A stretch of DNA of 64,000 bases, from positions 6,193 through 70,192 of the IMG/VR virus record IMGVR_UViG_3300046507_000526; one strand, 5' to 3'. A program made the position numbers and the translations under genes. Shown one piece after another: positions 17,243 to 39,500 of this stretch; within the stretch, counting starts at the first letter, position 1; the number at the start of each line of letters is the position of its first letter. Source of the stretch: a virus (taxonomy: Duplodnaviria; Heunggongvirae; Uroviricota; Caudoviricetes). A model generated the notes under the pieces. It was not told where the DNA came from. It was given only the letters and a program-made list of their open reading frames with translations, and made no database searches.

Positions 17243-17257
17243 CAGGCGAATCTAGTT

Positions 17258-17578: not shown

Positions 17579-17580
17579 AA

Positions 17581-18363: not shown

Positions 18364-18366
18364 TTT

Positions 18367-18915
18367 TTAAACCAGTGACTTAGGATTCATCGCACCGTTT
18401 TCACGATAACGACCTTGAAGATCCGTTAGGCTTTTGATAGTCATAAGATCAATACCATCGCCAAGAACAGCGTTAGTAAGGACAGATTGTAGCAGGTTCG
18501 GGTCGACAGCGACCATAGGTGCAAATCGATAAATAGTATCTGCGTACTTCAGGACTTTCTTGTTATCATGTTCACGAAGAACGTGGGAATTAGCAATAGC
18601 TTGGTGCAATGCTTTTAGGAAACGCTGATAACGGAATTGATCTACTACCGTGCGGTATCCACCGATAAGAGCATTGACTGCCATATTTGACACGAATCCT
18701 GCAGACGACTTACCAGCTTCTGTAGCCATACCTTTCAGATAGTCACCAGTAATATCTTGCTGATGAGGTCCAGCTGCTTCTTTTTGTAGCTGTTCGACTT
18801 CTTGTGCTTCTTTTTCAATCATCACATGAGCGATAAACCCGGCAACGAATTGGTCGGCAAGTTCTTCATTCCCGGCAAATTTCTCAAGACCGAGTTCTTT
18901 AATTTTTTCTAGCAT
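18367..18915 (-). CDS. Head protein with K-x-A motifs
   Basis: LEKFAG, IEKEAQ, LQKEAA. Confidence 0.55.
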   Translation of the reverse strand: MLEKIKELGLEKFAGNEELADQFVAGFIAHVMIEKEAQEVEQLQKEAAGPHQQDITGDYLKGMATEAGKSSAGFVSNMAVNALIGGYRTVVDQFRYQRFLKALHQAIANSHVLREHDNKKVLKYADTIYRFAPMVAVDPNLLQSVLTNAVLGDGIDLMTIKSLTDLQGRYRENGAMNPKSLV

Positions 18916-18942
18916 TTTAAATTATTCCTTTGAGTTTCTTAA

Positions 18943-20046
18943 TTAATCACGTTGAAGAGCTGTCCACGCGTCATTGCTTCTTCCCGTAGTTGAATCCGTA
19001 CCTGGGTCATACAGGGCAGCGTCAATAGCAGGGCCAGTAGCAAGTCCGATAGCACCCTTAAGTACTGAACCGGAAGTTTTACCGACAGCCTTCACAATAG
19101 CCTTGGGTTTACCGACTCCCCCGCTCATAAGGTTATTGACGTTTGATTTTACGCTATTAGAAGCTGCTCTGCCTACTGCTGCAACACCTTTAAAAGGCAT
19201 AGCCGCAGCAGCTCCTACTGCCCTGCCTGCGACATAGCCAGGATTACCAAGATTCTTGGCAAATTGTCCTGACTTCTTACTGATATTTTTCATCGCATCT
19301 GAGAAGTTATTCTGATTAATTCCCTGTGCGGTAGCAGCGGCTTGTTTCTGAAGTTCTGAACGCTGACGCTGTTCACGAACTAGTTCCCGGGCTTGCTTAT
19401 ACAAATCTGCAAATCCTTTAACTTCGCTTAGCTGAGCTTCTTTAAAAAGACCTACACTTGCGATATCACGATACTTTTGTACGGAGCCTGAAACTAGAAT
19501 AGAGAGTTCTTTGAACTCCTGTTCCGTTGTAACACAGGCCAGTTTATCCATCCATTTCTCATCACTGTTGATTGCCTTAGCTGTTTTCACAAGCCTCTCA
19601 GCGACGTTCATGCTTTCAATCTGGATACGTTCAAGTGCCTCTTTATTAGCAGCTGCAGATTTTATGAAGTAAGCCAGCTTTTCGCCGTGCTCAAGTTCAC
19701 GATTTTCATAAGCAGAAGCTTGTTTTTCCATTGCGTCTTTTTGTTCAACGCTAATAGCTGCAGCAGATTTTTCTTGGAAGTTATCAGGCACTGTAGCTGC
19801 GGTCATGACTTCCGCGTATTTAGCAAGCGGAAATTCGATAGTGCGATCTTCTTTACTCAGTTGTAGAACTTTAAGGTATGCGATATTGTTCGTTGATTCC
19901 ACAGCACGCTTAACCTGTTCACTATTCAATTCGTAGGCGGCAGCTTGCTTTGCAAGACCCGCGCTAAGGGGAACGTTGTTGTTCAGGAAGTCTTCGACTG
20001 CCTTTACTGAGATATCTCTAATTTCTTCTGGGCTGATATTAGCCAT
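18943..20046 (-). CDS. Head/internal protein with K-x-A motifs and C-terminal Gly/Ala-rich segments
   Basis: LAKQAA, QEKSAA, MEKQAS, FIKSAA, LFKEAQ, LQKQAA; promoter 20072..20078. Confidence 0.6.
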   Translation of the reverse strand: MANISPEEIRDISVKAVEDFLNNNVPLSAGLAKQAAAYELNSEQVKRAVESTNNIAYLKVLQLSKEDRTIEFPLAKYAEVMTAATVPDNFQEKSAAAISVEQKDAMEKQASAYENRELEHGEKLAYFIKSAAANKEALERIQIESMNVAERLVKTAKAINSDEKWMDKLACVTTEQEFKELSILVSGSVQKYRDIASVGLFKEAQLSEVKGFADLYKQARELVREQRQRSELQKQAAATAQGINQNNFSDAMKNISKKSGQFAKNLGNPGYVAGRAVGAAAAMPFKGVAAVGRAASNSVKSNVNNLMSGGVGKPKAIVKAVGKTSGSVLKGAIGLATGPAIDAALYDPGTDSTTGRSNDAWTALQRD

Positions 20047-20194
20047 TGTGTCCTCGTTTTGACGATGTTCCTATTTTAGCATTGAGCGCTATAAAGGGCT
20101 TGCTTTTGGGGTGACGAATCGATTTTTGACCAGTCCTCATACGAAGTTGGCCTTGTTTCTTTTTAGCCGCGATTTTCTCTAGATATTTATTCAT
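20039..20194 (-). CDS. 51-aa tagged highly basic peptide (not in ORF track)
   Basis: MNKYLEKIAAKKKQGQLRMRTGQKSIRHPKSKPFIALNAKIGTSSKRGHNG; stop overlaps the ATG of the next gene. Confidence 0.8.
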   Translation of the reverse strand: MNKYLEKIAAKKKQGQLRMRTGQKSIRHPKSKPFIALNAKIGTSSKRGHNG

Positions 20195-20271
20195 GTGTGT
20201 TATTTAACTTCCAGATACAAACAGGGCCTACCAGTATAAAACTTAGTAAGCCCTTGTTTTTAGCTATATTC

Positions 20272-20994
20272 TTATTTTTCGGATTCGTCTTCTTCTGATT
20301 CTTTATCGTTCAACTCTTGTGATGCATCCCTTGCAGGTAGTTCACTCAACTCTTTAATATCGAATCCTTCCAAGCTATCGAAACCGTTAAAGTCCGGTAC
20401 AACTTCTCTAATAGCGATTTCAAGCTCTTGACGTGCTGCATGCGTATCTGTAGTCCATACTTTAAGCAATCTGGCAATATCCATGGACAGTTTCGTCCAT
20501 TTCGTAGCCTCTTTAGAAGCTTCAGCGACATTACCGCTGAACATTGCTTCCTTGCTTTTATAAACGCATGTCGTGAATAAATCGACCAGGCCATCAATCG
20601 GGGATATCGTAACTGCTTTCCCCATTCTCCACGCTATAAATTCGAGTCCTTGACTCAAAGCCCATAACTTAAGGTTTGCTTCGTCTTTATCTCGAACATC
20701 TAAAAGCTCCATCTTGGTAAGCTTGTCGCATTCCGTAACATCGTAGAAAATCTTGGAATACATTTCTACGACATCTACCGGGAGTTCAAGGATATTAGAG
20801 ATAGCTTCAAAATCATTGCTACATAAAAGCGCAGCTTCTACGTAGCCTTTTTTAAGCTTGGATTCCTTGATCGGAATAATTTTCAGATATGCGCGTCGTT
20901 CAGGGCAGTCCACCTCGCTAAGCAATAAATCTACTAGCGGGTCAACTCCCCTTTTCGTGTTGCGGATATGTAATTCGCGTTGATTTGGTCTCAT
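20272..20994 (-). CDS. Hypothetical protein with possible HTH
   Basis: EAISNILELPVDVVEMY helix-turn-helix-like segment; acidic tail. Confidence 0.45.
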   Translation of the reverse strand: MRPNQRELHIRNTKRGVDPLVDLLLSEVDCPERRAYLKIIPIKESKLKKGYVEAALLCSNDFEAISNILELPVDVVEMYSKIFYDVTECDKLTKMELLDVRDKDEANLKLWALSQGLEFIAWRMGKAVTISPIDGLVDLFTTCVYKSKEAMFSGNVAEASKEATKWTKLSMDIARLLKVWTTDTHAARQELEIAIREVVPDFNGFDSLEGFDIKELSELPARDASQELNDKESEEDESEK

Positions 20995-21003
20995 TGCACA
21001 TGT

Positions 21004-22965
21004 TTACTCTTTAACGCTTAATTGTTTTCCAGAAGATTCAGTATCAATAACGTCAGCAGTAGCCGAGTATTCTTTCAGCTTCAGGTAATTATCACCAAGA
21101 AGTCGATACACTGTTTTGAGACCTGCCAGGAATGCGTAGACTTGATCTGCGTCATTGGCTTCAGCAAGACGACCGATATGAACACGAGCCATAAACAATG
21201 TACGTCCGAGTTTATCGATAGCTTCCTCGATGTCGGGAAGATATTCGTTAATCAGCTCGAACATGTCTGGGGCTTGAAGAAGTTCAGAAATAATCGTCGC
21301 CTCTGTAACCTGAGCATCACCCGTAGCAAGAGCACCTTGAACATTAGGGATAAATTGACCGTTAGGTTTATAAGCCCCATTCATGGTAACTTCGTCAGGA
21401 TCAATACCGGTTTGATCTTCTTCCCCGTATTGCGGCATATTACCGTCATCCTGCGCATTCGTGAAGCCAGCTTTCTTAGTCATGTAGATTTTTACGAACT
21501 TCACTTCCTTAGCCTGTTTCACAAAGCTTGTCGCTACTTCTGGATCAATGCCTTCACCTACAACAAGGCGTTTCATAACATCTGATTCTACTCCAGCGGT
21601 TTTACCGTTAATGGCAAACTCTACGCCATCATATCCCAGGTTCATTTCCTGACCGAGCCACTGAATATCATGAAGTTTACGCTTATGCGAAGCAGAGTTT
21701 ACATTACGCTCAAGATCCCCTGTCAGATTCTTACCAAGCTTTAGAACGATGGAATTATAAGGGAGATAGATTTCCTTGCTACGACCACTGCCACATACTG
21801 CAGGACCTGGCTTAGCATTACGATATCCGTAAAGAACCATCTCATATCCATACCCCATTTCTGAAGAAGAGCCTTTTACTTCAACGCCTAGGCTGCTGAG
21901 AACAACTTGATCCACAGATACTGGACCTAGAAACTCTCCTGAATTAAGCACGATTACAATTCTATCACCATTCTCCACATCTTTCAACATGATAGGAGGA
22001 TTGTATTCAAACATCGTTTTGAGAACTTCTTTACGATCAAGAGTTTCCCCGACGGAAACAAAGCTGTCAGATAGAGCGTAGTCCCCTGTTGTGAAAATAG
22101 CCATTGAAGTCTTAGCGGCATCGCCAAGATCATTGGTTACACGTTTTGGGCTAGAACCCAAAGTATACATCTTAGGAATGTAAGCCTCACGAGACGTACC
22201 GTTAGACAGCATAATTTCAAAATCTCTATCTCCATCAAGATTTGAAATATTACGGAAAGTACCTGCTGTATCGAAATTATCAATAGCAACAGCAACCCGG
22301 GAAGTAGGTTGTTCGCCTTCAATGTGGTAACCGTCGTTCAGGATTGAGGAGATCTGATCATTGGTCATCGAAGGGTTTGCGGCAGTTACAACCGAGATCG
22401 GCGAATAATTAGTAACTGCTGCCATACTTTCAGGACGGCTTTTTAGAACATCAAAAATGGCCTTTAGTCCGTACATTTCATCAAGAGAATCGTACACCGA
22501 TTTTTCGGCTGCGATCTTCTCCATTGTTGCCTGTTTGATATAGTCCGGCAGACTAGCCATGAATTCAGTCAGGCGACTAGAACTAGCATAGACATGCTTG
22601 CCAGTACGGGGCGGGTTAATCATATCCGCTACGCTTGGGTTACCAACCACAGTTTTAGGAATATCTGTAGGTTTACCTTGACCGAGCTGGCTCGAAGTAA
22701 CAACAAGGGCTACAGTTTTTTTCGTAAGCGGGAAGAATTTCTTCTCGTTATCAAAAAAGATAGAGTCAATAGGGTACACGTTATCATTCTTCGATACTAC
22801 GGGGACGAAGAAGATTTCAGTTCCGACGCGTAATACGAAAACACCGACCTGAATGCCGGTATCGTCTTGGAGTTCTTCAGAAACATCCTTAAACGTGATA
22901 ATGTAATTCCCTAGCTCAGGAACAGTTTGAAGCAGTTTTGCTAGAGCAATGTCGGAGAAATCCAT
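21004..22965 (-). CDS. Large head-associated protein
   Basis: 653 aa; YIKQAT, MEKIAA, FVKQAK, MTKKAG; promoter 22993..22999. Confidence 0.55.
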   Translation of the reverse strand: MDFSDIALAKLLQTVPELGNYIITFKDVSEELQDDTGIQVGVFVLRVGTEIFFVPVVSKNDNVYPIDSIFFDNEKKFFPLTKKTVALVVTSSQLGQGKPTDIPKTVVGNPSVADMINPPRTGKHVYASSSRLTEFMASLPDYIKQATMEKIAAEKSVYDSLDEMYGLKAIFDVLKSRPESMAAVTNYSPISVVTAANPSMTNDQISSILNDGYHIEGEQPTSRVAVAIDNFDTAGTFRNISNLDGDRDFEIMLSNGTSREAYIPKMYTLGSSPKRVTNDLGDAAKTSMAIFTTGDYALSDSFVSVGETLDRKEVLKTMFEYNPPIMLKDVENGDRIVIVLNSGEFLGPVSVDQVVLSSLGVEVKGSSSEMGYGYEMVLYGYRNAKPGPAVCGSGRSKEIYLPYNSIVLKLGKNLTGDLERNVNSASHKRKLHDIQWLGQEMNLGYDGVEFAINGKTAGVESDVMKRLVVGEGIDPEVATSFVKQAKEVKFVKIYMTKKAGFTNAQDDGNMPQYGEEDQTGIDPDEVTMNGAYKPNGQFIPNVQGALATGDAQVTEATIISELLQAPDMFELINEYLPDIEEAIDKLGRTLFMARVHIGRLAEANDADQVYAFLAGLKTVYRLLGDNYLKLKEYSATADVIDTESSGKQLSVKE

Positions 22966-23031: not shown

Positions 23032-23811
23032 TTAACATCCGGGTGGATGCTGATTATCACCAGAAGCAACGGTAATCGTCCCCGTGCCAGTACTAGACCC
23101 ATTTGCAACAGCCACACCCCCGCCTGAGCTATTTGCCTGATTGTAGGCAGCTCCGTAGTAAATACTTGCTACGTACGCCGAAGTAGAACTTCCGTTTCCT
23201 CGATCCGTAGCCGCTAATCCAATATAAGCCTGGAAAGTTGCTTCCATTCTGCTGTTATACGTGAATTGACCTATTGTGAATTTACTACCCGATTGTTTCA
23301 CTGCTTTATATTTGGATTCTAAAACTACGAGCCCTGCAAGCAGTTGATTTGATACAGTAGATGAGCCATTAAATTTAGCAGAAAGGCTCTCTCCTGGATT
23401 TACACAAAGTATAGACACAAGATCAGGTCTTGCAGTCTCGATCAGGCACTTACCTGTTTTCTGAGAAGCGCCTTTCACCTGGTTCCAACCCATAGTCTGT
23501 AGAAGACCCCAAGCTCGAAGGCCCTGATCTACGTTGACAGATTGCTGATTAATACCTCTTCCAACTATATTCTGTACAGCGCTAGAATTGTAATAATCCC
23601 TGGCACCTGACGAGTTTATAACGCTCAAAGCAGGGCCTTGAGCATTTACATTGAAATGGCTCTCGTATTGAATCTGAGCCATAACCAACTTTACAATATC
23701 GTTCTCTTTGCCAAGAGTATTGGGAAAATACTGATCAAGTAACTGTCTGATCGTTGTAGCACAAATCTGTTTAATAGAGGTATCTACGACGGTTCCTGTA
23801 ACAGCACCCAT
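23032..23811 (-). CDS. Virion-associated lytic transglycosylase (SLT-like)
   Basis: AQIQYESHFN catalytic Glu motif and AWGLLQTMG; ATG overlaps the beta'-C stop (TAATG). Confidence 0.65.
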   Translation of the reverse strand: MGAVTGTVVDTSIKQICATTIRQLLDQYFPNTLGKENDIVKLVMAQIQYESHFNVNAQGPALSVINSSGARDYYNSSAVQNIVGRGINQQSVNVDQGLRAWGLLQTMGWNQVKGASQKTGKCLIETARPDLVSILCVNPGESLSAKFNGSSTVSNQLLAGLVVLESKYKAVKQSGSKFTIGQFTYNSRMEATFQAYIGLAATDRGNGSSTSAYVASIYYGAAYNQANSSGGGVAVANGSSTGTGTITVASGDNQHPPGC

Positions 23812-25637
23812 TAGTACTTACCTCCCTCTCCTTCACCGAATTCATTGCCGATAATATACGAAGTAATGGGATCAGTACTGTGAATATGTGATTCAGATCC
23901 TACAGCTGCACTTTCACGTAAGGTGTTTTTAAGACCTGAGAATGAAAGCTTAGATACCCAGTTATCATCGAGTAATTTAGCTGTCTTAAGACCAGGCACA
24001 ATCGGAACTACTCGAAGTCCAGTCGGAGCCACAGGCACCTTGGTTACCCCCTTTTCACGCAATTCCTGAATATGATTACCGTCAAGAAGTGTTCCCGGCG
24101 TAAGCTCATAAACGCCTTTTGCTAAAAGTTTACCTTCAGCCTGGTCAAGAGGAACTTCTCCATGAGTGTCAGCAAAATACTTGCGCACTGTATTCACATC
24201 AATCTTTTGGCCAGGTAGGAAACCAGTTTCAGCAGGATCAATTACTTCAACGTGCTTGACCAGGTTCTTGGCAATCATTTCGAAATGGCGAGGATCAAGG
24301 CCTCCGCCGTATATTCCACGAAGCTCATGGGCCATGTACAGCCGACCTGCACCCAGACCTTTCAGTCCAACCAGTTTTCGAGGATTTACAACACCGGTAG
24401 AAAGGGCATCGCCTTTGAGAATCTTTTCGCCAACAGCAACTTTAAGATTCTGATTGTTAGGCACGAAGTGTGCCTGCTCGTTTACGAACACATTATGGTC
24501 ACCAAGAGGGGTTTGCTTAATTGCGGAAACCACGCCATTGATATTCGAGATCGTTGCTTCGTCTTTGAAGTTTTCCGAAGGATTACGCAGAAGATTCGAG
24601 GCTTGATCGTAAGAGTTACCCTTACGAGCACCAACAGAAGCTTTGTGCTTCGTAGAAAGCATGGACTGCGTCAAAACTTCAGATACAGATTGAGCAGCGA
24701 TAACACCAACGTTTTCACCAATCTCAGCAGGTTTACCATTTCCCATTAATCCATAGCATTTCTTGCAAACACCATCATGTGCTTCGCATGTCAATACACT
24801 ACGCACCTTCATGTCTTTATGGCCTGAATTTACAAGTTCTTTGTAATAGTGCTCATCGATTAAGGTGTTCGTACCAACTTCGTAGCGGCCAATAGCTCCC
24901 TTTTTGTCGGCGATTGGCAAAGTTATACCGTTTGTCGTCCCGCAATCGTCAATAGTAATTACTTCATGGAATACGGTAGGGGAAAGTTCCTTAAACAGAG
25001 CGCCTGGAAGAGCTGTAGACAACTGAGATAGAACGGTAGATCCACGACCCATATACGACATTGCGATAACCTCTGCAGGAGTCATACCTTGAGCAAAAGA
25101 ATGCTTAATAACGAAAGGAACAAGTTCCCCTTTAAGGTTGATCGACATAAGAGGGGTCGATGTACCAGTAGCAAGCTGCGTGGGATTACCACGCGCACCA
25201 GTACGAGCCATCTTTGCAGCAGTCGAGCCTTTGCTCAAAAGATAGTCAAGGTTTTGTTTTTCGATCTTACCGTTGTATTCGCCAGTTAGATTTCCCAGCG
25301 CATCATTCTCTTCTTTCTTTGAAAATTTCTTTGCAAAGATTTGATCAACCTTTGTTTGAAATTCATCGATGATAGCCTGACGTTCGTCAGATTCATTTAT
25401 GTAATCGCTGAGCGGAGTAGTAGCACCAATCTCGGTTGCCTTGTTGAAGAACTTCTTACCGAGATCATTAATCGTTTCATGGCTATTAGGCCCGCCGTGC
25501 TTAAGAAGTACATTGACCAAGTCGCTGATAGCGCCTTTATCAAGAGGCCTGTACAGATCGAAGTTGTCCTTCGCTTCTTGAGTGGGAAGTTCTGATTTGA
25601 GCCTAATGGCTCCAGGCGTGGTATATTTTTCAGTCAT
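23811..25637 (-). CDS. rpoC: RNA polymerase beta' subunit, C-terminal fragment
   Basis: ARTGARGN, VITIDDCGT, RSVLTC, CKKCYG, GENVGVIAAQSVSEVLTQSMLSTKH (trigger loop), PRHFEMI. Confidence 0.9.
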   Translation of the reverse strand: MTEKYTTPGAIRLKSELPTQEAKDNFDLYRPLDKGAISDLVNVLLKHGGPNSHETINDLGKKFFNKATEIGATTPLSDYINESDERQAIIDEFQTKVDQIFAKKFSKKEENDALGNLTGEYNGKIEKQNLDYLLSKGSTAAKMARTGARGNPTQLATGTSTPLMSINLKGELVPFVIKHSFAQGMTPAEVIAMSYMGRGSTVLSQLSTALPGALFKELSPTVFHEVITIDDCGTTNGITLPIADKKGAIGRYEVGTNTLIDEHYYKELVNSGHKDMKVRSVLTCEAHDGVCKKCYGLMGNGKPAEIGENVGVIAAQSVSEVLTQSMLSTKHKASVGARKGNSYDQASNLLRNPSENFKDEATISNINGVVSAIKQTPLGDHNVFVNEQAHFVPNNQNLKVAVGEKILKGDALSTGVVNPRKLVGLKGLGAGRLYMAHELRGIYGGGLDPRHFEMIAKNLVKHVEVIDPAETGFLPGQKIDVNTVRKYFADTHGEVPLDQAEGKLLAKGVYELTPGTLLDGNHIQELREKGVTKVPVAPTGLRVVPIVPGLKTAKLLDDNWVSKLSFSGLKNTLRESAAVGSESHIHSTDPITSYIIGNEFGEGEGGKY

Positions 25638-25724: not shown

Positions 25725-25733
25725 TGGTATAAG
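25725..25733 (+). promoter_or_regulatory. TGGTATAAG promoter
   Basis: Exact motif upstream of 25779. Confidence 0.75.
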
Positions 25734-26415: not shown

Positions 26416-26755
26416 CCTCGACAAGAGAGTAGTGTAGATCCCAGACTGGACTGAGCGGAGTGAGATAGATTCTCTCCGCCAGTCCGTATTTTTTAATCAA
26501 ATCAGAAATATGTTGGTATAAAGACTTAAAGATCCCCTTACCTTTATTTTTACTCTTTGCAAATGTCTTTGCAGTTCCTCCAAATTCACCAACAGAGTTT
26601 AGGATAAGGCAATTATCGTGAATCGTTATATCTATAGGCATTCCTGAAATCCAGGCGGTTCCAGGCAATATTTTTTCATCTTTGAATTCGATGGTCGTGT
26701 TTGCTGATTCAGCAAGGGCCTTTAGGAATTCGTTTTCTTTAACATGTGTATACAT
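26354..26755 (-). CDS. Possible GNAT-like protein
   Basis: KNKGKGIFKSLYQHI resembles the acetyl-CoA-binding motif A; weak. Confidence 0.35.
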   Translation of the reverse strand: MYTHVKENEFLKALAESANTTIEFKDEKILPGTAWISGMPIDITIHDNCLILNSVGEFGGTAKTFAKSKNKGKGIFKSLYQHISDLIKKYGLAERIYLTPLSPVWDLHYSLVEVNEALKGHYFYLDTSRPSEP

Positions 26756-27910
26756 ATGGCAATTAAAAATAAGGCTGTTGAACTTCCAAAGGCGGCGCTT
26801 CCAAAAGCTACTACTAACGTAAATGCTTCATACTGGACCCAACTTCCTAAAACCAGCGATGAATACGGAAAAATTCTCGATAAAGTAATTGATGAACTAA
26901 ATAAGTCGCATAAGAACTCAGGATATAGCATTTATGTTCGTAAATCTAACAGATTCAAGGAACTCTCGTCTGCTAAGTATACAGAGAAAATGTTCCTGTT
27001 TTTGGAAGCTAACTATTGGTCATACACTACAAAGGCCGGTGCTGAAGCTATCCAGTACATCATAGATCATTTCCAGCTTAACGATCAAAACGCAAGGCTT
27101 AGTCCGGACCGCAAGCACGTAGAATTTATGTACGACGGCGTACTTGTTGAAATTGGAGATCCGAGTGAACGACTTAGGAAAGCCAATAGTAACCCTGAGT
27201 CTCAGATCACCAATGTTATATACGGATACGGAGGAGAGCTGTATAAGGTGATCAAGATCCTGCTTAACAAGTTTGGATTTGATTTTACAGACGAAGCCAA
27301 GTTTCAGTTCAAGCTTATGGAAGGAGAGTCCGTATATAAAACGTACGAAGTTGCTACGGGTCTAGATAGTTTATATAAACTCCTGGGCACGAGTTCCAGA
27401 AACGCACCGTATATGTTTAATTTTACAAAGCGGTCTGAATTCGCAGACTGGGCAATGGGTTCACGCTACATCGGTAAATCAACATTTGATATCGATGAGC
27501 ACAATAACTATGTAGGGCCAGTGGATTATTACGGGTCATCTCTGTACAGGGAACTGGTTCATATTATTCGTGAGAAATACGTTTCTGACGCAGACAAGGC
27601 TACGCCTGAAGTTTTGCCAGAAACGATCCGTAAGTATCAGAATAAATTCTGGGAAGCCAGAAGCGTTTACGAATATAAAAAGATGCTGAAAGATATGGCA
27701 GTGTATCAGGAACGTAAGATCATTCGGAATAAATTTACTGATACTATGATCATGGAAGTAACTGGTACAAATAACAAAGAAGAAATAGATTCCTTCAAGT
27801 TGAGATTTGAAAATCATATCTCCAACAGCGAAGATTTCTCGTTCTTCTTGCTGAGTTCTTCCGAAGATACTATCCGTGAGAAAATAGCAGCATTCAGAGC
27901 TTCGAACTAA
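26756..27910 (+). CDS. Possible divergent nucleotidyltransferase-family protein
   Basis: C-terminal half (SEFADWAMGSRY; RNKFTDTMIMEVTG) recalls phage Pol-beta-like NTases, but no GD-x-D motif is seen. Confidence 0.35.
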   Translation: MAIKNKAVELPKAALPKATTNVNASYWTQLPKTSDEYGKILDKVIDELNKSHKNSGYSIYVRKSNRFKELSSAKYTEKMFLFLEANYWSYTTKAGAEAIQYIIDHFQLNDQNARLSPDRKHVEFMYDGVLVEIGDPSERLRKANSNPESQITNVIYGYGGELYKVIKILLNKFGFDFTDEAKFQFKLMEGESVYKTYEVATGLDSLYKLLGTSSRNAPYMFNFTKRSEFADWAMGSRYIGKSTFDIDEHNNYVGPVDYYGSSLYRELVHIIREKYVSDADKATPEVLPETIRKYQNKFWEARSVYEYKKMLKDMAVYQERKIIRNKFTDTMIMEVTGTNNKEEIDSFKLRFENHISNSEDFSFFLLSSSEDTIREKIAAFRASN

Positions 27911-27914
27911 GTTT

Positions 27915-27921
27915 TAAAATA
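27915..27921 (+). promoter_or_regulatory. TAAAATA late-type promoter on the plus strand
   Basis: TTTTAAAATAG overlapping the first arm of the terminator hairpin 27924..27957; only plus-strand intergenic copy noticed. Confidence 0.55.
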
Positions 27922-27982
27922 GTCTAGACGTGATATAATGCGTCTAGGCTTTTTTTAGCTTTTCAAAGGCGTCCGACAATAA

Positions 27983-28450
27983 ATGCTACAACCTAACGAT
28001 GAATTCCTTTTTACCCGTCAACGTCACGAAGCTGATGTAATGGGCCTGCATTACGATCTGAGACTCGTTCATGGAGACAAAGCGTATTCTTTTGCAACTC
28101 TCAAGGATATGCCTAAACCTGGTGAAATCATTGCCGTCTATGAGCAGCCTGTACATGATCGTGCATACGCACTTAGCAAGAAGGTTGTCATTCCTAAAGG
28201 TCAGTACGGCGCAGGGACTACGTATCTGGATTGGGTTCGTAAAGCAGTTGTAGCCCCGCATAGCACAGAAACTAGTCTGGTTATATTCACGAAGGATGGT
28301 GAGAAGTTTCTTCTGAAGAAATCTCCGACCAAAGAAAATGAAAAGTCCTGGATTTTTAGAAACATCACAGGCATGGGGAAGAGTCAGAATCCTTATTTGA
28401 AGAAAGTAGAGGAAATGCAGAAAAAAGCGATGCAGGCATTTTATGAATAA
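27983..28450 (+). CDS. LigD-type 3'-phosphoesterase (PE) domain protein
   Basis: QRHEA..LHYDLRL..SFA..K..P..AV..H..Y..IPKGQYGAG, the signature of LigD PE domains. Confidence 0.85.
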   Translation: MLQPNDEFLFTRQRHEADVMGLHYDLRLVHGDKAYSFATLKDMPKPGEIIAVYEQPVHDRAYALSKKVVIPKGQYGAGTTYLDWVRKAVVAPHSTETSLVIFTKDGEKFLLKKSPTKENEKSWIFRNITGMGKSQNPYLKKVEEMQKKAMQAFYE

Positions 28451-29903
28451 GTACCTTGAAAAAATTGCCAAGAAGCAGCCTAAGGAAGATCTTCAACCGC
28501 ATCAAAACGATGCCTTGGATCATCTCGACAAAGAGAAAGGCGTTGTCCTTCATCACAGCCTTGGCAGTGGCAAGACAAAGACGTTCCTTAAGGCTGTACA
28601 ACGCTATCAGGAAGAGAACCCGAAGAAACGGGCTCTTGTTATTGCCCCAGCGAGCCTCGTTACTAACGTCGATAAAGAACTTCAGAAACATCACATCACG
28701 ATTGATAAAAATCGACTGGATGTAATGTCTTATGAAAAGGCTGTAAATGAAGCCCATCACCTTCGAAAGAATCACTACGCAATCGCAGTTGCGGATGAAG
28801 CCCACCGTCTCCGCAATACAAATACCAAACGTGTAAAAGAGCTTCGTGACATTATCAGCGGGGCTGACCATAGACTTCTCGCTACTGCTACTGGTAATTA
28901 CAATAAGCTTTCTGATATTTCGGCACTGGTTAACATAGCGGCTAACGATAATGTTCTTCCCGAAGATTCCAAGAAAATGGAAGACAAGTACACGAAGGAC
29001 GAAACGATTAAGCCTAGCTTCAAAAATAGATTGCTCGGTGCTAAACCTGAAGTAGTAAAAACCCTTGACCGTAAAAAAGAACTTCGAGACATTCTTCAAC
29101 AATATGTGAGCTTTTACGATAGCAAGGATGATCCGAAGGCTAGAGACCATTTCCCCGAAAAGCATGAGAAATTTGTAGATGTTGAGATGTCTCCAGAGCA
29201 GCTCCGTTACTACAAATATGCTGAAGGTAAAATTCCATTCTTGCTTAGAATGAAGATCCGTCACAATATGCCGCTCGATAAAAAAGAGAAGTCGAATCTC
29301 AATGCTTTCTCAACCGGTGTTAGACAGGTTTCTAACGGTCACAGGCATCTCGTTGCTGACGGTAAGGCCGAGTACTCACCAAAGATACAGAAGGCCGTGG
29401 CGAGCCTCCAGGATGGCTTAAAACTGGATAAGAACTTCAAGGCTCTAGTGTATTCCAATTACTTGGATGCGGGCCTTAAAGATTACTCCCGCAAACTTAA
29501 CGAGCTTAAGATTCCACACGCTTTATACGATGGATCATTGTCTCGCAAAGAGAAAGACGATCTTGTAAAAGCATACAACTCTGGGAAGACAAAGGTTCTT
29601 CTTATTTCTTCAGCGGGTTCAGAAGGTCTGGATAGTAAAGGCACTAAGAGAGTGCAGGTTCTTGAGCCTCACTTTAATAAAGCCAAGGTTGACCAGGTAG
29701 TTGGACGTGCCGTACGTTTTGGAAGTCATGACCATCTGCCGAAAGAAGAGCGTAAAGTAGAAGTAGAGCATTTCCGTAGCGTGCATCCAAAACCGTTGTG
29801 GGGCAAAGCTCCGTATAGTATCGACAGGTATCTTTCGGAGAATTCGGATACGAAGCAGGATCTGTTTGAAGAAGTCAAAGGACTGATGAAGAAAGATGAT
29901 TAA
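28443..29903 (+). CDS. Tagged SF2 helicase/ATPase (SNF2-related, NPH-I/D6-D11-like)
   Basis: MNKYLEKIA; HSLGSGKT, DEAH, TATG, SSAGSEGLD, QVVGRAVRFGSH. Confidence 0.85.
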   Translation: MNKYLEKIAKKQPKEDLQPHQNDALDHLDKEKGVVLHHSLGSGKTKTFLKAVQRYQEENPKKRALVIAPASLVTNVDKELQKHHITIDKNRLDVMSYEKAVNEAHHLRKNHYAIAVADEAHRLRNTNTKRVKELRDIISGADHRLLATATGNYNKLSDISALVNIAANDNVLPEDSKKMEDKYTKDETIKPSFKNRLLGAKPEVVKTLDRKKELRDILQQYVSFYDSKDDPKARDHFPEKHEKFVDVEMSPEQLRYYKYAEGKIPFLLRMKIRHNMPLDKKEKSNLNAFSTGVRQVSNGHRHLVADGKAEYSPKIQKAVASLQDGLKLDKNFKALVYSNYLDAGLKDYSRKLNELKIPHALYDGSLSRKEKDDLVKAYNSGKTKVLLISSAGSEGLDSKGTKRVQVLEPHFNKAKVDQVVGRAVRFGSHDHLPKEERKVEVEHFRSVHPKPLWGKAPYSIDRYLSENSDTKQDLFEEVKGLMKKDD

Positions 29904-31272
29904 TAAATACCTTGAAAAGATCGCAGTACAGCTTAAAGAACCTGCCAGCCCAGAAGGGTTAGGATTTGACCTGTCCAAAGGTGATGAAAAAGAGCTATAT
30001 AAATGGCTTACAGCTGTTACTCTTTTTTCAAGGCCTATTCAACGCTCGGTAGCTACGATGGCTGCAAAGCATATGGCTGATAAAGGTTTCCATTCTCCAG
30101 AAGCTGTAGAATCTGCAGGATGGGAGACTCTTAGAGATAATCTCGTACAAGGTCATTATGCTCGGTTCGATGAGTCAACTGCTACGACTATGCTCGCCCA
30201 GGCTAAGCATTTGAAAGAGAAGTATGGAACTCTCGGCAACATGATCGCCAGTCGAACCCCTGAAGAAATTCGTGCCGAGATTCAGACATTCAGAGGTATC
30301 GGTCCCCTCGGCAGTCAGTTATTTCTCAATGGCGTAGTCCCTCATCTCGATGTATACAAAAATAAATACCTTCAAAAAGCGGCTTTCATCGAAGACTACG
30401 TTAGACATAAATATGTAGAGAAAGACTGGACTCAGCTCGAACACCCCGTTGCATCAAAGAAATGGGATGGCGCTCACTTTGTCGCTGATATTATGCCGGA
30501 TGGTAAAATCCGTTTCTTTTCCCGTAGACCAAGTGTAAGAGGTGGCTATCCGGAACGTACAGATCAGTTACCTCATATTACTTCAAAGCTAATTCCCGAG
30601 TATGCAGGTAATAGATTTGCCGTTGAACTTGTCCATACTGGAAAGGAAAAAACAGAGAAGGAATCTCACCCTACTGTTTCAGGTATCCTCAATTCAAAAA
30701 CGGAACGTTCAATTGCTACTCAAGAAGAGAAAGGCCCAGTTAGGGCAGTTCTTATTGACGTTAAAAAACCGGAACTGCCGACATATAAAGATAAGATTGA
30801 GTATCTCCAAGGCTTTGAAAAAGACTTTGGAAATAGCAATGTATTGTTCGCACCTCATCTTGAGCATGGCGTTGAGAACATCAATAAGTATCTTGACAAG
30901 ATTAAATCACTAGGTGGAGAAGGCCTGATCGTTGCGGATTATGAAAGTCCTGAAAATGAGTCTGTACGATATAAGGTCAAGAACTTCAACACTTATAATC
31001 TCAAGGTTGTTGGATTCCAGCAGGAAATCGACATACATGGCAATCCGAAAGATAGCATGGGTGCACTATTGTTAGAAGATGCTACTGGAAGAATGGTTGG
31101 AAAGGTTGGAACTGGGTTTGACCGTGCTACCAGAATAGATGCATGGAAGAATCCAGAGAAATGGAGAAACAGATTAATTCAGATAAGAGCGTATCCACCT
31201 AGCGTACCTGGAGGCCAAGTAAGATTTCCTATCTATAATGGCTATGCAGATGGTGAAATAGACACGGTTTAA
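29896..31272 (+). CDS. Tagged fusion: HhH/endonuclease III-like domain plus ATP-dependent DNA ligase
   Basis: MINKYLEKIA; FRGIGP HhH motif; second tag NKYLQKAA at aa 156; KKWDG, EGLIV, YKVK, GKVGTGF, RFP ligase motifs. Confidence 0.85.
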   Translation: MINKYLEKIAVQLKEPASPEGLGFDLSKGDEKELYKWLTAVTLFSRPIQRSVATMAAKHMADKGFHSPEAVESAGWETLRDNLVQGHYARFDESTATTMLAQAKHLKEKYGTLGNMIASRTPEEIRAEIQTFRGIGPLGSQLFLNGVVPHLDVYKNKYLQKAAFIEDYVRHKYVEKDWTQLEHPVASKKWDGAHFVADIMPDGKIRFFSRRPSVRGGYPERTDQLPHITSKLIPEYAGNRFAVELVHTGKEKTEKESHPTVSGILNSKTERSIATQEEKGPVRAVLIDVKKPELPTYKDKIEYLQGFEKDFGNSNVLFAPHLEHGVENINKYLDKIKSLGGEGLIVADYESPENESVRYKVKNFNTYNLKVVGFQQEIDIHGNPKDSMGALLLEDATGRMVGKVGTGFDRATRIDAWKNPEKWRNRLIQIRAYPPSVPGGQVRFPIYNGYADGEIDTV

Positions 31273-31288: not shown

Positions 31289-31297
31289 TGGTATAAG
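31289..31297 (+). promoter_or_regulatory. TGGTATAAG promoter
   Basis: Exact motif upstream of 31370. Confidence 0.75.
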
Positions 31298-31369: not shown

Positions 31370-32149
31370 ATGTCAACCTCTATTGCCAAGCAACAGATCA
31401 TGAAGGCTCGTCAGCCGAAGGTGGTTAATGTGGAAAGTCTGATTTATGCTACTAACTCTGATGCAGTTTACCAGCTCATCAAGAAGTATGCAGGTGGACT
31501 TTCCAGATCTGACCTATGCACCGCACTTGTTCACAGCAAGTCGGACCTTAAGGAACACAGCGTGGATAACGCTTTGCTGCACCTTAAGAACAACGGCTTT
31601 ATTCGCGGGGAAGTAGGCAAAGATCGTGATGGTACGACCGTCTACTTCATCAACGAAGATAAGGAGTACAGGCCTCGCTCCAACAAAGTTGCACGGAAAA
31701 TAGCACCGAACGATAAGAAAGCTCAAAAGGCTGTTCGGCGTATGACTCGTGTGAAGGCAGTAGACCTCACCGAGGAACAGCAAGGTAACCTGCCTTTGGA
31801 GAATGCGAATGGCTCATCTGAAGCCCCTTCCGCACAGGCCAAGAAGAAGCCTGTTCAATCTCAAGATGCGAACCTTAAGGTCACGAAAAAGGCTGAGGGG
31901 AAATCTGGAGGTTTTGAATTCATTCAAGGGATGGCAGCGTTGGATCCGAGCAGCCCGCACTTTGGAGAGACGGCGCTTGACCTTGCTCAAAAGACGGGTC
32001 AGGTAGTAGAAATCCCGGAACCTACGGGCCCGGTAAAGCCTATCGCTTCGATGTTCTTTGAACTAGATGGAGGTCAATCGGTGGTTCTGTCCCCCGCCAG
32101 AGCTTACCAGTTGTATCTCGAACTCCACGCTGCATTTGGTAAGAAATAA
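31370..32149 (+). CDS. Winged-helix DNA-binding protein (probable)
   Basis: VYQLIKK..GLSRSDL..SVDNALLHLKNNGFI plus wing; basic linker. Confidence 0.55.
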   Translation: MSTSIAKQQIMKARQPKVVNVESLIYATNSDAVYQLIKKYAGGLSRSDLCTALVHSKSDLKEHSVDNALLHLKNNGFIRGEVGKDRDGTTVYFINEDKEYRPRSNKVARKIAPNDKKAQKAVRRMTRVKAVDLTEEQQGNLPLENANGSSEAPSAQAKKKPVQSQDANLKVTKKAEGKSGGFEFIQGMAALDPSSPHFGETALDLAQKTGQVVEIPEPTGPVKPIASMFFELDGGQSVVLSPARAYQLYLELHAAFGKK

Positions 32150-32246: not shown

Positions 32247-33413
32247 TTACGCTTCGATTTTGATCGGCGTATTATCGTTGATTTCTCCACGCTCAAGAGC
32301 AGATAGTACTTCAGCTTCTGATTTGAATACACGAGGAGCTTGGGTCATGTCAGGCTCAGTCAAGGCCATAGATCCGATAACAGCTTCGTGTCCAGGAGCC
32401 ACCATTGATGCTCCCTGTCCTTTACGATAATCGTAAATGTGTTGTTGCGGCAATAGCTTCTTTTTAGCCTCTTCAACTGCCTCTGGCGTCATCGGTACAT
32501 GCAGTGTTAAAGCATCTCCGTCAAAGTCGCCTGCGTACATAGGAAGATGCAACGGATTAATACCTAGCGTCTTACCTTCAATAGGGACGGGGAAGTGAGC
32601 CGTGATGTTGGTACGCATAAGCGTTGGAGCACGGTTAAGGATAACCGGAATTTGCTTGATAACCTTGTTAAAGCTATTCGTTGCAGATACGTCTCTATTC
32701 GCTACAGCCTTACGAGCGGCCATCATATCGTATCCGTTACGGACAAGATCCCGAATGATATGGAACTCGTACATCGTCCAAAGCATGTCCTTCGGAGCAG
32801 CTACCTCATTGAAACCTAGATTAGGCTCAGCGTAAATCGTTGCACGTCCAGAGAAATCCTGTTTCTTCTTCAAAAGCTTATTGTGAAAAAAGCCGCCTTT
32901 AGGACCAGTATCTCCTGCAATTTGCTGGATGTAGCCCTTCAGATCTTTCCCACGTGCGCCGCCAGAAACTGCATCCCCAAGACCGAACACTGCTTTAAGA
33001 CCGTTATATGAATCCTTGCGCTCATTAACAAGCATGTCATGAGGCAGAAATTCAAGGTTGTCTTTAAGCCCATTGTTAATCAGCATATGGTCTCGGTATA
33101 GAGTATTCACATCGGCGAACTCGATACGGTTCCCTCCCATAGGAATACTGGGCCTTACTAACGGAGGAGTAACAGGCACATTGTGTAAGATATACGCATT
33201 TTCAGGACGTAGATCCATTTTCTGAAGCCCAGCAAGATATTTGATCTTCTTGATAATAGCATCACGCTTAGAAGGAGATTTCGTATCTTTGATTTCAGCT
33301 TTCAAAGCTTTAATCTGTGTATCTACATCAATTGTAGAAAGCATTTTATGAATTGCATCTCCTGAAACGGAGAGGCTATCTGTATCTACGCTGAGTTTTG
33401 TATTGTTATCCAT
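32247..33413 (-). CDS. rpoC: RNA polymerase beta' subunit, catalytic middle fragment
   Basis: VPVTPPLVRP, LLKKKQDFSGRATI, VILNRAPTL, YAGDFDGDALTLHVP (catalytic DxDGD). Confidence 0.92.
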   Translation of the reverse strand: MDNNTKLSVDTDSLSVSGDAIHKMLSTIDVDTQIKALKAEIKDTKSPSKRDAIIKKIKYLAGLQKMDLRPENAYILHNVPVTPPLVRPSIPMGGNRIEFADVNTLYRDHMLINNGLKDNLEFLPHDMLVNERKDSYNGLKAVFGLGDAVSGGARGKDLKGYIQQIAGDTGPKGGFFHNKLLKKKQDFSGRATIYAEPNLGFNEVAAPKDMLWTMYEFHIIRDLVRNGYDMMAARKAVANRDVSATNSFNKVIKQIPVILNRAPTLMRTNITAHFPVPIEGKTLGINPLHLPMYAGDFDGDALTLHVPMTPEAVEEAKKKLLPQQHIYDYRKGQGASMVAPGHEAVIGSMALTEPDMTQAPRVFKSEAEVLSALERGEINDNTPIKIEA

Positions 33414-33425: not shown

Positions 33426-34211
33426 TTACCTGATATATGCAAAAGTTCGTCTTTTTACTCGTTTAGGATTATAGCTTATCCTGATCTGGCCACCCGCACC
33501 GTTACCGCCCGCTGATGAGCCCCAGCCGCCGCCGCCACCGCCACCTCCTGGAAAACCGCCATCTCCACCAAAGGGTCCGCTACCATTACCTACAGAACCA
33601 CCGCCACCACCGCCACCATTTGCGTTTGCAGTCCCAACAACACCGCTACCTCCGTTGCTACTGCTGCCGCCAGCTCCCCCAGTACCGCCTTTACTGTTAT
33701 CGCCAGAACCCCCATTACCTCCAACGCTCGAAGTAAACGTACTTCCGGCTACACCTGGTCCGTCTGGACCTGCAGAACCCCCTCCTCCACCGCCAGCTTG
33801 ATTGGTATTATCTGTACCGACACCACCGCTCCCGCCTGCGTATTTTATAGTTCCAACTGTGCCTGTTGTTGCCCCACCGGCACCTGGTGTTGCAGAGTTT
33901 GTGCCAGAACCGCCCTTTGCGCTACACGTACAACTTCCAATAACTGATCCGTTGAAAATTGTCGCTCCACCATCGGTGCCAGTACCGTTGCCACCGCCAT
34001 TACCGAGAATGTAGGGAATAGTTCCGCTAATATTTACGTTTGAAACACTCGAATATGCACCTCCTCCAGCTCCTCCGCCAGAAGCCGGGGGTCCACTTCC
34101 AGATGCACCTCCTGCGCCAAAACACTCTATAAGGTTATCAGAGGGGTTGAAATCTGAAGGCACAGAAAATGATGTGCCAGATACCAATAGAATTACTTTA
34201 GAATAAGCCAC
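33426..34211 (-). CDS. Glycine-rich fibre/virion protein
   Basis: Long GGxGG repeats typical of receptor-binding and fibre tips. Confidence 0.65.
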   Translation of the reverse strand: MAYSKVILLVSGTSFSVPSDFNPSDNLIECFGAGGASGSGPPASGGGAGGGAYSSVSNVNISGTIPYILGNGGGNGTGTDGGATIFNGSVIGSCTCSAKGGSGTNSATPGAGGATTGTVGTIKYAGGSGGVGTDNTNQAGGGGGGSAGPDGPGVAGSTFTSSVGGNGGSGDNSKGGTGGAGGSSSNGGSGVVGTANANGGGGGGGSVGNGSGPFGGDGGFPGGGGGGGGWGSSAGGNGAGGQIRISYNPKRVKRRTFAYIR

Positions 34212-36528: not shown

Positions 36529-39500
36529 TTACTCTCCTGCGTCTGCTACATTGGCGCTATTAACTTTGATAGTTTTGATATGTTTGCCATCTGCTGTGCT
36601 GTGCAAAGCAAAAGATCCCTCCCCCATATCTTTAACTCCGATAGTTCCTTGTACAATACCTTCGAACTCGCTAGACTTAAGACCTAGAAGGCTCTTGATA
36701 GGACGTTCGAATACAGGATTCGGAAGAGGCTCTGCAAGTTCGTAGTGAGTCCACTTGTTACCGCGTAGTCCACCCGTAGTAGCAGGATCATACAGTCCAC
36801 CCTTTTCAGGCTCAAGATTCTTTGCACTAAGAAGCTCCGGAGATTCAATCTTACCATTAGACATTTCGATAATATCAGTATCAGTTAAAGGAGAAGCAGT
36901 AACAACGCCATTCCTGATACTTGTCTTAATTCCTGAACCTTTCAGATAATCGAAAAACTTCTCTGTAGCAAAAGTCATGCGTGGCTTAGGAAGAGCCTGG
37001 CCCATCTTGAACTTAGCCCAATAGTCAGAGTTGTCCTGAGACTTAAGGGTAGAAATTTCCTTAAGATTCTTTCTTGCATTGGAACCTAGGAGACCAAGCA
37101 TTTCCATGTACCCAACTGACTTAGAACCTTCCTCACCACCTTTTTGAGGTTGAAGGACGTTATCATATGCGCCTACATTTCTAGCAGACCAGTTCTGGTC
37201 AGTCGTCTTATATAGTTTCAAGAAATACTGAGGTCCTGTAAGGATTCTCCCCAGATCTTTACCACTCTTAGGATCGACCATCATCTCAGTATCGCTGATT
37301 CCCAGATTATCCAACTCTTTCTTCAAATCAGAAACGTTGCTTCCTTTGCTGAAATTATGAAGAAAGTAAGGCTTACCCGTGGTTTTTGCAATTTTACCTG
37401 CTGCAGTTTCCATCAGCTGGCCAAGGTTAATACGAGAAGTAACGGATGCCGGGTTAAGAAGAATATCGACAGCTTCGCCATTTTCTTTCTTATAAGGCAT
37501 TTCATGATCCTCAAGAATCTTGGAGACGATACCTTTGTTACCATGCAGGCCGGTCAGTTTATCGCCAATTTCCAAAGGCTTAACTGAACGAACCAGGATA
37601 CGGATATTCTTACCTTCTGTGTGAGCATCCACGACAGTACCGTTTTCTTCATGGGTCCAAAGTTCCGCTGCAAGACGGAAAGGCGTAACCAGCGATTTAT
37701 GAAGCCGTGCAAGTAGCTTATCTTCAGCAGAAGGTTCACGTTTTTCCAGAACTGCATAAACGGGATCTCCATGCTTAAGGATAGCCCCGACTTTTGCAAA
37801 GCCTTGATCATCAAGATTTTCAAGTTGATCCTTGGTAAACTTTCCAGGATACCAACGATTGATCAAAGCCTTATTCATTGTCGTAATAGGCTGCACTGCA
37901 TAGTCAATCTTATACGCATGATGACTGCTCAGGCTTTCTGCGCATGAACGGCTGATCACCAAACCATCTTCGTGGTTGTAGCCCTTGTACGGCATGTACG
38001 CAACTTCGAGATTTTTCCCAAGCGCCAGTTCACCATCAACGGTGTAGTTGTTATCAGCTACAGGCTGATTCACAGAAACTTTATCGCCAACCTTAACCAA
38101 TGGCTTTTCATCATCCAGGAATCCTTTCATATTAAAAGGAAGGTTTTTAACAAGGTCTATCTTGTGAGTCTTACCATCATCATCCTTGATATGAATCTGG
38201 GTTTTTGTAATATTAGTTACTGTGCCTGCAGAAGGAGAAACTGTGCTTACAACTTGACCGATTGCTTTAACGAAGCTTGTACCGGCACCGTTAACAGTCT
38301 GGACCAGAGGCTTCTCACGTTCAACAAGAGATAGAGCTTGGGGAATAGCTTTGCCTGCCATCGTAAGACGGCCAGGATGATTACTATTAAGGAACGGTAC
38401 CAGATTAGTTGTAATCGTGTACATGTCTGTAGTATCCCCAAGCCAGTAGTCTACGCTTGAGAACGGAACTTCTTTAAGATCTCCCTTAACCTGAGCCTGT
38501 ACTATCTTTTTGCCTTCTTGATGAGGAAAGCCAATAGTATGGGTCATCATTTCCTGAACTGACAGGTAATGTTGTTTCCCTTGTTTATCAATAACACGTG
38601 CGTACAAATTCCCGCTATCGTCACGACGAGCTGAGATAGTGAAACGCTGGTCGATACCTGCATGGCCAGATTCTGGCGTACGGCTAGGATCGATAATACC
38701 AAGATGTGACGGATCGATATCTCGTGCAGACATAGGTACGCCACGGTCAGAAGCAATACCGCCTTCGCCCGCGCCAAGAACTGTTACCTTACCCACGCTT
38801 TCCAAAGATTCAATCGGATTAGTTTCCGAAGGTGTCGAAACAAGATTACTTTCAATGATGTAGTTAGACATAACCTTGTTATATGGCTTGCTTACTACAA
38901 CATCTCGAATTGAAGGATTTTTTGTCTTATCCAAATTAGCAAGCAACTTCCTACGAATACCGGGAAGAAGCTCATGCTTGTTAAATCTGGTAGTAATAAA
39001 ATCGGGCAGATTCTGAACACGTTTAAATTGCAGAGAATCTCGATTGTCTTCCGGCCTTTCGCCTGCGTGAACCTGGACCAGATTACGCATAGCTCTGAGA
39101 ATTGAGTCAGAGTTAACTGAGGGGACAGATTTACCAAGAGTAACAAGAGTCGTTTGCGGAGAAAGAGACGAAGCTTCCATGGATTCACGAAGCTGCATCA
39201 TTTTCTCTTCTGTGCTTGCAGTAGGCTTTTGCTTTCCAGTGGATACTAGCTTACCGTAGAGATCATTGATGATCTTTTGTTCTTTCCCAGCAGAAGCCGC
39301 AAGATTAGCTTCCCAAACCTGAGCAGGAATGTACTGAGAAACTTCTTTAGGTCCAATGCCAAAAACCTTGGATACTAAAGGTCCAAGGGGGATTGTTGAA
39401 GACGAGCTTGCAGGATGAACTGAAAACTGGAATGTCTGCGGATCTAGCGTGATAGAAAAGCTACGTCCAGAACCGGTGTTGAAGTGAGACTCCAATTCCC

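Follow-up and report, generated by a model that had tools for sequence, protein, structure and literature searches.

Packaged enzymes and end-healing systems described so far

Several kinds of enzyme are known to be packaged in phage virions, namely RNA polymerases (RNAPs), ADP-ribosyltransferases and anti-restriction proteins. Phage T4 provides the clearest addressing system, in which unrelated cargo proteins have one leader in common (PMC3012670), the capsid targeting sequence MKTYQEFIAE (PMC8442874); in phage P1, the large superfamily 2 (SF2) helicase enzyme DarB is loaded into the capsid through a signal at its N-terminus and protects the delivered DNA (PMC9024508). Here we analyze a 64,000-nucleotide stretch of a tailed-phage genome (hereafter the window; positions 6,193 to 70,192 of the IMG/VR record IMGVR_UViG_3300046507_000526), in which an operon of three plus-strand genes encodes a stand-alone LigD-type 3'-phosphoesterase (PE), an SNF2-family ATPase (hereafter the helicase) and a helix-hairpin-helix (HhH) domain joined to a minimal ATP-dependent DNA ligase. 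We interpret this operon as encoding a heal-and-seal module that is recruited to the virion, and put the probability of that reading at about 0.5.

The locus resembles each of the closest described systems in part. As with the T4 proteins IPI-III and Alt, unrelated proteins share an N-terminal leader of about 10 residues, and their genes include variable insertions near head genes. The leader found here (MNKYLEKIA in the helicase) is identical to that of T4 at M1, Y4, E6, I8 and A9, i.e., at 5 of 9 positions in the same register, which is a lead rather than proof of homology; the T4 leader ends in a prohead-protease site and the present one in a motif enriched in head proteins (see below). Unlike in T4, however, the putative cleavage motif is hydrophobic-x-K-x-A instead of L/I-x-E, DNA repair enzymes are among the candidate cargo, fusion proteins also have the peptide internally, at their domain junctions, and the system is known from sequence alone. 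The P1 Dar system likewise involves an SF2 helicase, but DarB blocks type I restriction by modification, with no end-healing or ligation, and the Dar proteins lack a common leader. Bacterial LigD and the archaeal stand-alone PE share with the operon the PE fold, six catalytic residues and an ATP-dependent ligase partner, whereas the operon lacks Ku and the AEP polymerase, has an SNF2 partner, and couples a minimal nucleotidyltransferase-OB ligase to a domain derived from the HhH-GPD fold. Finally, as with the jumbo-phage Swi2/Snf2 helicase, RapA and poxviral NPH-I, an SNF2 ATPase is encoded beside virion RNAP genes, and in Salmonella phage Arash it is found in virions; the motor here and in many relatives differs in being fused or coupled to a PE and a DNA ligase. 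None of the parts is of a new kind, as PEs of the LigD superfamily, SNF2 motors, minimal ligases and leaders for capsid targeting have all been described. The literature searched did not describe a conserved triad of these enzymes, permuted fusions of them with a head-module motif at the joints, or the likely capsid loading of a repair kit; the full-text search, which included LigD PE in virions, found no phage reported to package a DNA ligase or a kit for 3'-end healing.

A three-gene operon under purifying selection

The operon comprises the following features:

27983-28450, plus strand: stand-alone LigD-type 3'-phosphoesterase, 155 amino acids (Pfam PF13298, alignment to 3P43)
28388-28447, plus strand: C-terminal tail of the PE, with the tag variant NPYLKKVEE followed by an MQKKA junction motif
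28443-29903, plus strand: predicted SNF2-family ATPase/translocase, 486 amino acids (Pfam SNF2-rel_dom, Helicase_C and ResIII)
28443-28469, plus strand: helicase leader MNKYLEKIA
29896-31272, plus strand: HhH-ligase protein, 458 amino acids
29896-29925, plus strand: ligase leader MINKYLEKIA
29953-30345, plus strand: HhH domain, the six-helix-barrel half of the HhH-GPD glycosylase fold (predicted model, Foldseek)
30358-30387, plus strand: internal second tag KNKYLQKAAF at the HhH/ligase junction
30388-31272, plus strand: minimal ATP-dependent DNA ligase core, nucleotidyltransferase plus OB (motifs, fold, PHROG 114)

Both overlaps between consecutive open reading frames (ORFs) measure 8 bp (ATGAATAA and ATGATTAA), in agreement with the original prediction of three translationally coupled genes; its enzyme assignments are also borne out by family matches and intact catalytic residues. 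A 97%-identical strain from a separate study has an identical gene layout and PE/helicase junction with zero indels, and the ratios of nonsynonymous to synonymous polymorphism (pN/pS) between the two strains are 0.02 (PE), 0.05 (helicase) and 0.045 (ligase). All three genes, the stand-alone PE included, are therefore under strong purifying selection and functional, and the split between PE and helicase is real. The shared indel-free junction rules out the split as an assembly error. We also considered a programmed frameshift that would join the two products, but no convincing slippery site was seen, and a simpler explanation is termination-reinitiation at the 8-bp overlap.

Identity of the three enzymes

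The PE matches the Pfam LigD_N profile (PF13298) with 33.4 bits where the cut-off is 31.1, and scored 33.7 bits when the genome was scanned. When it is aligned to the structure of the Methanosarcina barkeri enzyme (MbaPE; 3P43), all 6 catalytic residues are kept, with H15, H23, D25, R27, H58 and Y62 corresponding to MbaPE H36, H42, D44, R46, H78 and Y82. These six are essential by mutagenesis: two histidines and the aspartate for Mn, the arginine and a histidine for the phosphate, and the tyrosine (PMC3082917). The operon PE hence belongs to the LigD 3'-phosphoesterase superfamily and is predicted to be a Mn-dependent 3'-phosphomonoesterase/diesterase. Its C-terminal tail aligns with the linker between PE and helicase in fused relatives and with NPYLKKIEEGMDKQAS in the related locus L004.

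The helicase combines a Walker A motif (GSGKT) and a DEAH box with matches to SNF2-rel_dom (PF00176, 3e-19), Helicase_C (PF00271, 4e-15) and ResIII, features that place it in the SNF2 family. Its best match in the PDB is the Sulfolobus SNF2/Rad54 core (1Z63, 5e-13), and a weak one is vaccinia NPH-I (6RFL chain Y). The ortholog in phage Arash is gp217 (40.5% identity).

The original prediction of an HhH domain fused to a ligase stands as regards both the fusion and the presence of the HhH, and is refined in that the domain is one half of the HhH-GPD fold without the catalytic lysine. In a model with a predicted local distance difference test score (pLDDT) of 95.8, all the top Foldseek matches are EndoIII/NTHL1, OGG or MagIII; residues ~30-144 of the query align to EndoIII 28-130, so that only the barrel/HhH half is present. 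A role as a glycosylase was rejected, as the GIGPL segment has a leucine in place of the catalytic K120 of EndoIII and the second domain is missing; the alignment likewise has no aspartate after the HhH among its nearly invariant columns. Most of the 376 homologs of the domain are free-standing, and a few match Pfam Ogg-HhH or HHH_5. It is probably a DNA-binding module that retains a glycosylase-family fold.

The ligase core (~residues 165-458) retains the motif I lysine (K189-x-D191-G192) and motifs III-V, with E244, E342-G343 and K360/K362, all invariant among 30 sequences, and matches the PHROG 114 ATP-dependent DNA ligase family (6e-25). Its model (pLDDT >90) recovers ATP-dependent DNA ligase folds at E 1e-15 (T4, Chlorella virus, Lig E), the most compact matches being two minimal ligases, Lig E and that of Chlorella virus. 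It falls below the Pfam gathering scores: PF01068 is unmatched, and PF14743 alone gives 16.5 bits against a cut-off of 28. On the strength of motifs and predicted fold, we place it in a divergent branch of the ATP-dependent DNA ligases. The ligase of a distant relative (L008) lacks the HhH domain altogether, and its N-terminus is the tag at the position of KNKYLQKAAF.

Recurrent fusions of the three activities and the absence of Ku

In relatives at 63-77% ligase identity, the PE and helicase are a single protein of 636-644 amino acids. Such PE-SNF2 fusions occur in L002, L003, L006, L008 and L050, whereas other members of the family are differently permuted: 120 ligase homologs include PE-ligase fusions (P0026, P0046, P0085, P0110 and P0118), an SNF2-ligase fusion (P0056), and fusions of the ligase with a GNAT domain or with a domain 'X' (see below), and in L004 and L005 the PE is fused to a 270-residue domain without a family match. 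The triad also recurs on three distant large-phage contigs, where a PE-SNF2 fusion adjoins an untagged ligase (L050), a PE-ligase fusion lies close to an SNF2 gene (L051), and PE-X is followed by an SNF2-ligase fusion (L052). The repetition of these fusions in varied permutations argues that the three activities work together; the comparison thus defines PE, SNF2 and ligase as one predicted functional module that is widespread in large phages.

Since a PE of the LigD type and ATP-dependent ligases belong to non-homologous end joining (NHEJ) in bacteria (PMC3082917), the operon might serve Ku-dependent end joining or circularization of the injected genome, or the repair of restriction or CRISPR breaks, with Ku supplied by the host. 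However, neither Ku (PF02735) nor the LigD polymerase (TIGR02778) was found in the 134-kb contig from which the window derives or in a complete 181-kb relative (G001), searches in which the controls matched; the earlier remark that the window has no Ku or polymerase domain thereby holds across both. With both components absent, the module is not a canonical NHEJ set. The ligase, moreover, is of the minimal nick-sealing type, like Lig E and the Chlorella virus enzyme. Cuts by restriction enzymes and Cas nucleases leave 3'-OH ends, for which no PE is required. We consider Ku-type joining very improbable.

Domain 'X' is a stretch of ~140 residues (F-x-P-D-L-[ST]-P ... W-Y-x-W-Y ... G-[KR]-R ... 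D-D-x-R-Q) that in relatives is joined to either the ligase or the PE, e.g., P0011 residues 10-150, P0002, P0009 and L052:4527-5366, and is always flanked by the junction motif described below. Its structural neighbors are viral hypothetical proteins only; Pfam and PHROG gave no match for this domain, for the extra domain of the L004 PE or for the small tagged ORFs introduced below. Separately, reverse-transcriptase genes (RVT_1) lie near the triad in two of the distant contigs (L050:989-1885 and L052:1-275). The one in L052 adjoins an array of seven DUF8296 paralogs (L052:778-3982), and the two together are possibly a diversity-generating retroelement.

A shared peptide at leaders and domain junctions

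The tag that had been described at the N-termini of the helicase and ligase, with a variant at the C-terminus of the PE, is real in all three places. Searched with a degenerate DNA pattern that encodes NKYLEK(I/V/A)A, the window gives 7 matches, against 0 in 100 shuffles, and each of four related genomes holds 6-9 copies (0 in reversed controls). Synonymous codons vary among the copies, which argues for selection on the peptide itself; this variation and the internal occurrences rule out a nucleotide-level signal such as a translation enhancer. A further resemblance, INKYLDKIK in the ligase (~residues 322-331), was rejected as a third tag: it forms a helix that precedes motif IV in the nucleotidyltransferase domain, reads K-I-K instead of K-I-A, and is also found in untagged ligases. 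A full-text literature search gave no match to the string NKYLEKIA.

The other tagged ORFs lie in the head-morphogenesis module:

13019-13486, 13464-13907, 17258-17578, 17581-18363 and 20039-20194, minus strand: five small tagged ORFs
15713-17230, minus strand: prohead protease (PHROG matches only)

The five small ORFs interleave with the prohead protease and scaffold-like genes. A short N-terminal leader is accordingly common to seven ORFs for unrelated proteins linked to the head module, five of them beside the prohead protease. None of the five has a homolog in Arash or in Vibrio phage D69, whereas every untagged neighbor has one, in conserved order; by this comparison, the small tagged ORFs are assigned as accessory insertions in a conserved head backbone, like the internal-protein genes of T4.

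The leader ends in L-E-K-I-A and so contains the hydrophobic-x-K-x-A motif. The pattern [LIMV]xKxA[AGST] occurs 27 times in the 3332 residues of the head module, against 9 in the remaining 35,630 residues, i.e., 8.1 versus 0.25 per 1000 amino acids, a 32-fold enrichment; shuffled head proteins give 2.6 +/- 1.6. In 25 of 30 ligases with an N-terminal extension it immediately precedes the ligase core, and in the multi-domain ligases each domain junction has it. Further copies separate PE from helicase where the two are fused, and one is found at the C-terminal end of the stand-alone PE. The enrichment in the head module and the placement at domain junctions suggest that hydrophobic-x-K-x-A is a candidate prohead-protease cleavage site, and that fused cargo may be cut apart after loading. 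The peptide thus appears to be a junction or processing element as well as a leader: the notion of an N-terminal tag is sound for the leader but not as an exclusively N-terminal feature, the peptide being internal in the fused PE-helicase of most relatives.

Among the head proteins (12430-22965, minus strand), the motif-rich ones are the scaffold-like 14791-15660, 12430-13026, 13979-14611, 18943-20046 and the protease, and the head proteins of Arash and D69 likewise carry hydrophobic-x-K-x-A-[AS]. Searched against the PDB by sequence, the prohead protease gave no useful match. The tagged 260-residue ORF at 17581-18363 (minus strand) has weak matches to the PARP (E 0.03) and Tpt1/KptA (E 0.008) ADP-ribosyltransferase folds; if true, this would be a parallel to the packaged T4 Alt.

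Promoter-like motifs upstream of the operon

Two classes of promoter-like motif were distinguished, with these sites around the operon:

25725-25733, plus strand: promoter-like TGGTATAAG copy of the plus-strand unit upstream
27915-27921, plus strand: TAAAATA promoter-like motif of the structural-gene class
27921-27957, plus strand: hairpin of 12 pairs with a run of seven T, like an intrinsic terminator, ending the upstream unit (terminator scan)
27931-27939, plus strand: TGATATAAT, a weak TGGTATAAG-class variant in the loop of this hairpin
31289-31297, plus strand: promoter-like TGGTATAAG copy of the plus-strand unit downstream (31370-32149)

TAAAATA occurs 24 times in the 134-kb contig. Ten of the 11 intergenic copies are on the minus strand, 5-85 nucleotides upstream of structural or virion-RNAP genes; the remaining one, at 27915, precedes the PE, so that its earlier description as the only plus-strand intergenic copy extends to the whole contig. 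It is conserved upstream of the PE in L002, L003, L004 and L006, and in the distant L008, whose flanks differ. The 9-mer TGGTATAAG, which is like an extended -10 element, has 31 copies in the contig, all on the plus strand, of which 25 are intergenic and before non-structural genes (in the window, e.g., 25725, 31289, 42168, 42243 and 53322); it is probably a promoter class read by the packaged RNAP with a sigma-like factor. The operon is the sole plus-strand unit behind TAAAATA, the other plus-strand units using TGGTATAAG. From the genes that it precedes, we infer that the TAAAATA class is late, and it is this motif class that would make the operon late.

Between TAAAATA and the PE start lies the hairpin, which the original prediction had not recorded. 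It is conserved in relatives with compensatory pairs (changed on both sides), and L004 has TGGTATAAT at the position of TGATATAAT. In T4 late promoters, transcription starts a few bases past the TAAAATA-type motif. If it started likewise here, the hairpin would lack part of its 5' arm, and transcripts of the operon would escape termination while those from upstream would stop.

Probable virion location of the helicase lineage

The phage has a multisubunit RNAP that is split into three genes interleaved with structural genes, and the operon sits between the two beta' genes:

23811-25637: RNAP beta' C-terminal gene
32247-33413: RNAP beta' N-terminal gene
36529-39906: RNAP beta gene

In purified virions of Arash, the helicase ortholog gp217 was detected by liquid chromatography-mass spectrometry with 38 unique peptides and 1148 spectra, as compared with 128 and 3516 for RNAP beta, 40 and 1210 for RNAP beta', and 30 and 1333 for the major capsid protein; two other Arash helicases and the Arash DNA ligase were represented by 2 unique peptides each (PMC10585845). 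Thus, gp217 is among the most abundant Arash virion proteins, per residue similar to beta and beta', and its gene directly follows that of beta' inside the head module. These data support a virion location for the helicase lineage, and it is for this lineage only that the proposed virion loading gains support.

An alternative is that the SNF2 protein is primarily an accessory of the virion RNAP, as a RapA-like recycling factor or a DNA-pulling motor, with the PE and ligase as later add-ons for transcription-coupled nick repair or only loosely related to it. An RNAP-linked Swi2/Snf2 helicase beside the beta'/beta genes, with a proposed RapA-like role, has been described in jumbo phages (Iyer et al. 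2021; PMC7824862), and the position of the operon between two beta' genes fits this. The recurrent PE-SNF2 and SNF2-ligase fusions, however, link the motor to DNA end chemistry, beyond transcription. We think this alternative unlikely as the primary account; it is compatible with a virion-recruited module and does not exclude it.

Proposed recruitment to the virion and its alternatives

According to the preferred reading, the PE would remove 3'-phosphate or 3'-ribonucleotide blocks, the SNF2 motor would translocate on duplex DNA, and the minimal ATP-dependent ligase, which the HhH domain would keep on DNA, would seal the nick. In this clade, the module would have been placed behind a structural-gene type of promoter and given the leader/junction peptide, two features from which prohead recruitment emerges as the most likely fate of the enzymes. 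Within the prohead they would be trimmed or separated by the prohead protease, to be ejected with the genome and the virion RNAP, so that nicks and blocked ends of the incoming DNA could be mended before phage gene expression. What we infer here is the loading into proheads, the cleavage, the ejection and the timing, as well as the substrate in vivo.

Several observations weigh against such recruitment. The operon phage and its tag-bearing relatives are known only as sequences. Arash gp217 is untagged, and Arash has neither the PE nor an operon-type ligase; residence of the helicase in virions hence needs no tag and says nothing direct about the PE and ligase. The PE itself has no N-terminal tag. 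Most ligase homologs (88 of 118, ~294 amino acids) are untagged, which indicates that the core job of the module needs no packaging. An NAD-dependent ligase was not found in the contig or in G001, and in a PF01068 search of both the sole match was a Pnkp-like ORF; the operon ligase may therefore be the only DNA ligase of the phage and possibly be needed in replication. Lastly, the conserved terminator-like hairpin and the weak TGGTATAAG-like site in its loop may allow read-through or early transcription.

These points, apart from the first three, are also what favors an ordinary cytoplasmic repair or replication module that is never packaged, as does the preservation of the triad where the ligase is untagged (L050). 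The peptide would then mediate docking to a phage factory or a partner, or be a linker inherited through gene shuffling. Yet elsewhere the peptide is found only on accessory ORFs within the head-morphogenesis module and holds the motif enriched there, no other plus-strand unit has the structural-gene motif, and Arash virions contain the helicase ortholog as a major protein. We regard a purely cytoplasmic role as rather unlikely, though it is the main contender.

Beyond the heal-and-seal module recruited to the virion, one may tentatively picture a pre-assembled transcription-and-repair machine, an idea that we hold as possible but less likely than not. Tagged cargo polyproteins (PE-SNF2 and HhH-ligase, and in relatives HhH-X-ligase or X-GNAT-ligase) would be loaded by means of the leader, cut by the prohead protease at their hydrophobic-x-K-x-A junctions and ejected with the virion RNAP, healing and sealing during early transcription the nicks and blocked 3' ends that had built up in the DNA of the dormant virion.

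Genome setting and neighboring genes

The 134-kb IMG/VR record has an estimated completeness of 73%; its habitat is given as soil/rhizosphere metagenomes, and the listed matching sequencing sets are soil and rhizosphere DNA contigs, with no RNA set among them. The cultured relatives are Salmonella phage Arash and the Vibrio phages D69, D148 and D181. Against GenBank phages, the operon has no match by blastn, and the ligase finds by tblastn remote ligases only (25-31% identity). Other landmarks of the window are:

10962-11855: major head protein
40190-42079: portal

Immediately upstream of the operon (26744-27910, plus strand) is a conserved ORF of 388 amino acids with no Pfam or PHROG family match. 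The structural neighbors of its low-confidence model are all Pol-beta-type nucleotidyltransferases, at template modeling (TM) scores of 0.22-0.33, a weak lead to a fourth repair activity. At 33426-34211 (minus strand), beside the beta' N-terminal gene and with other minus-strand genes on its far side, is a 261-residue glycine-rich protein with long G/S/A/N runs.

Implications

The comparison defines a conserved, Ku-independent PE-SNF2-ligase pathway in large phages. The shared peptide would amount to a short, portable capsid-addressing or processing code, of possible use in loading foreign proteins into capsids. If the virion reading is true, phages, like giant eukaryotic viruses, would bring their own first aid for the damage that their genomes incur outside the cell.

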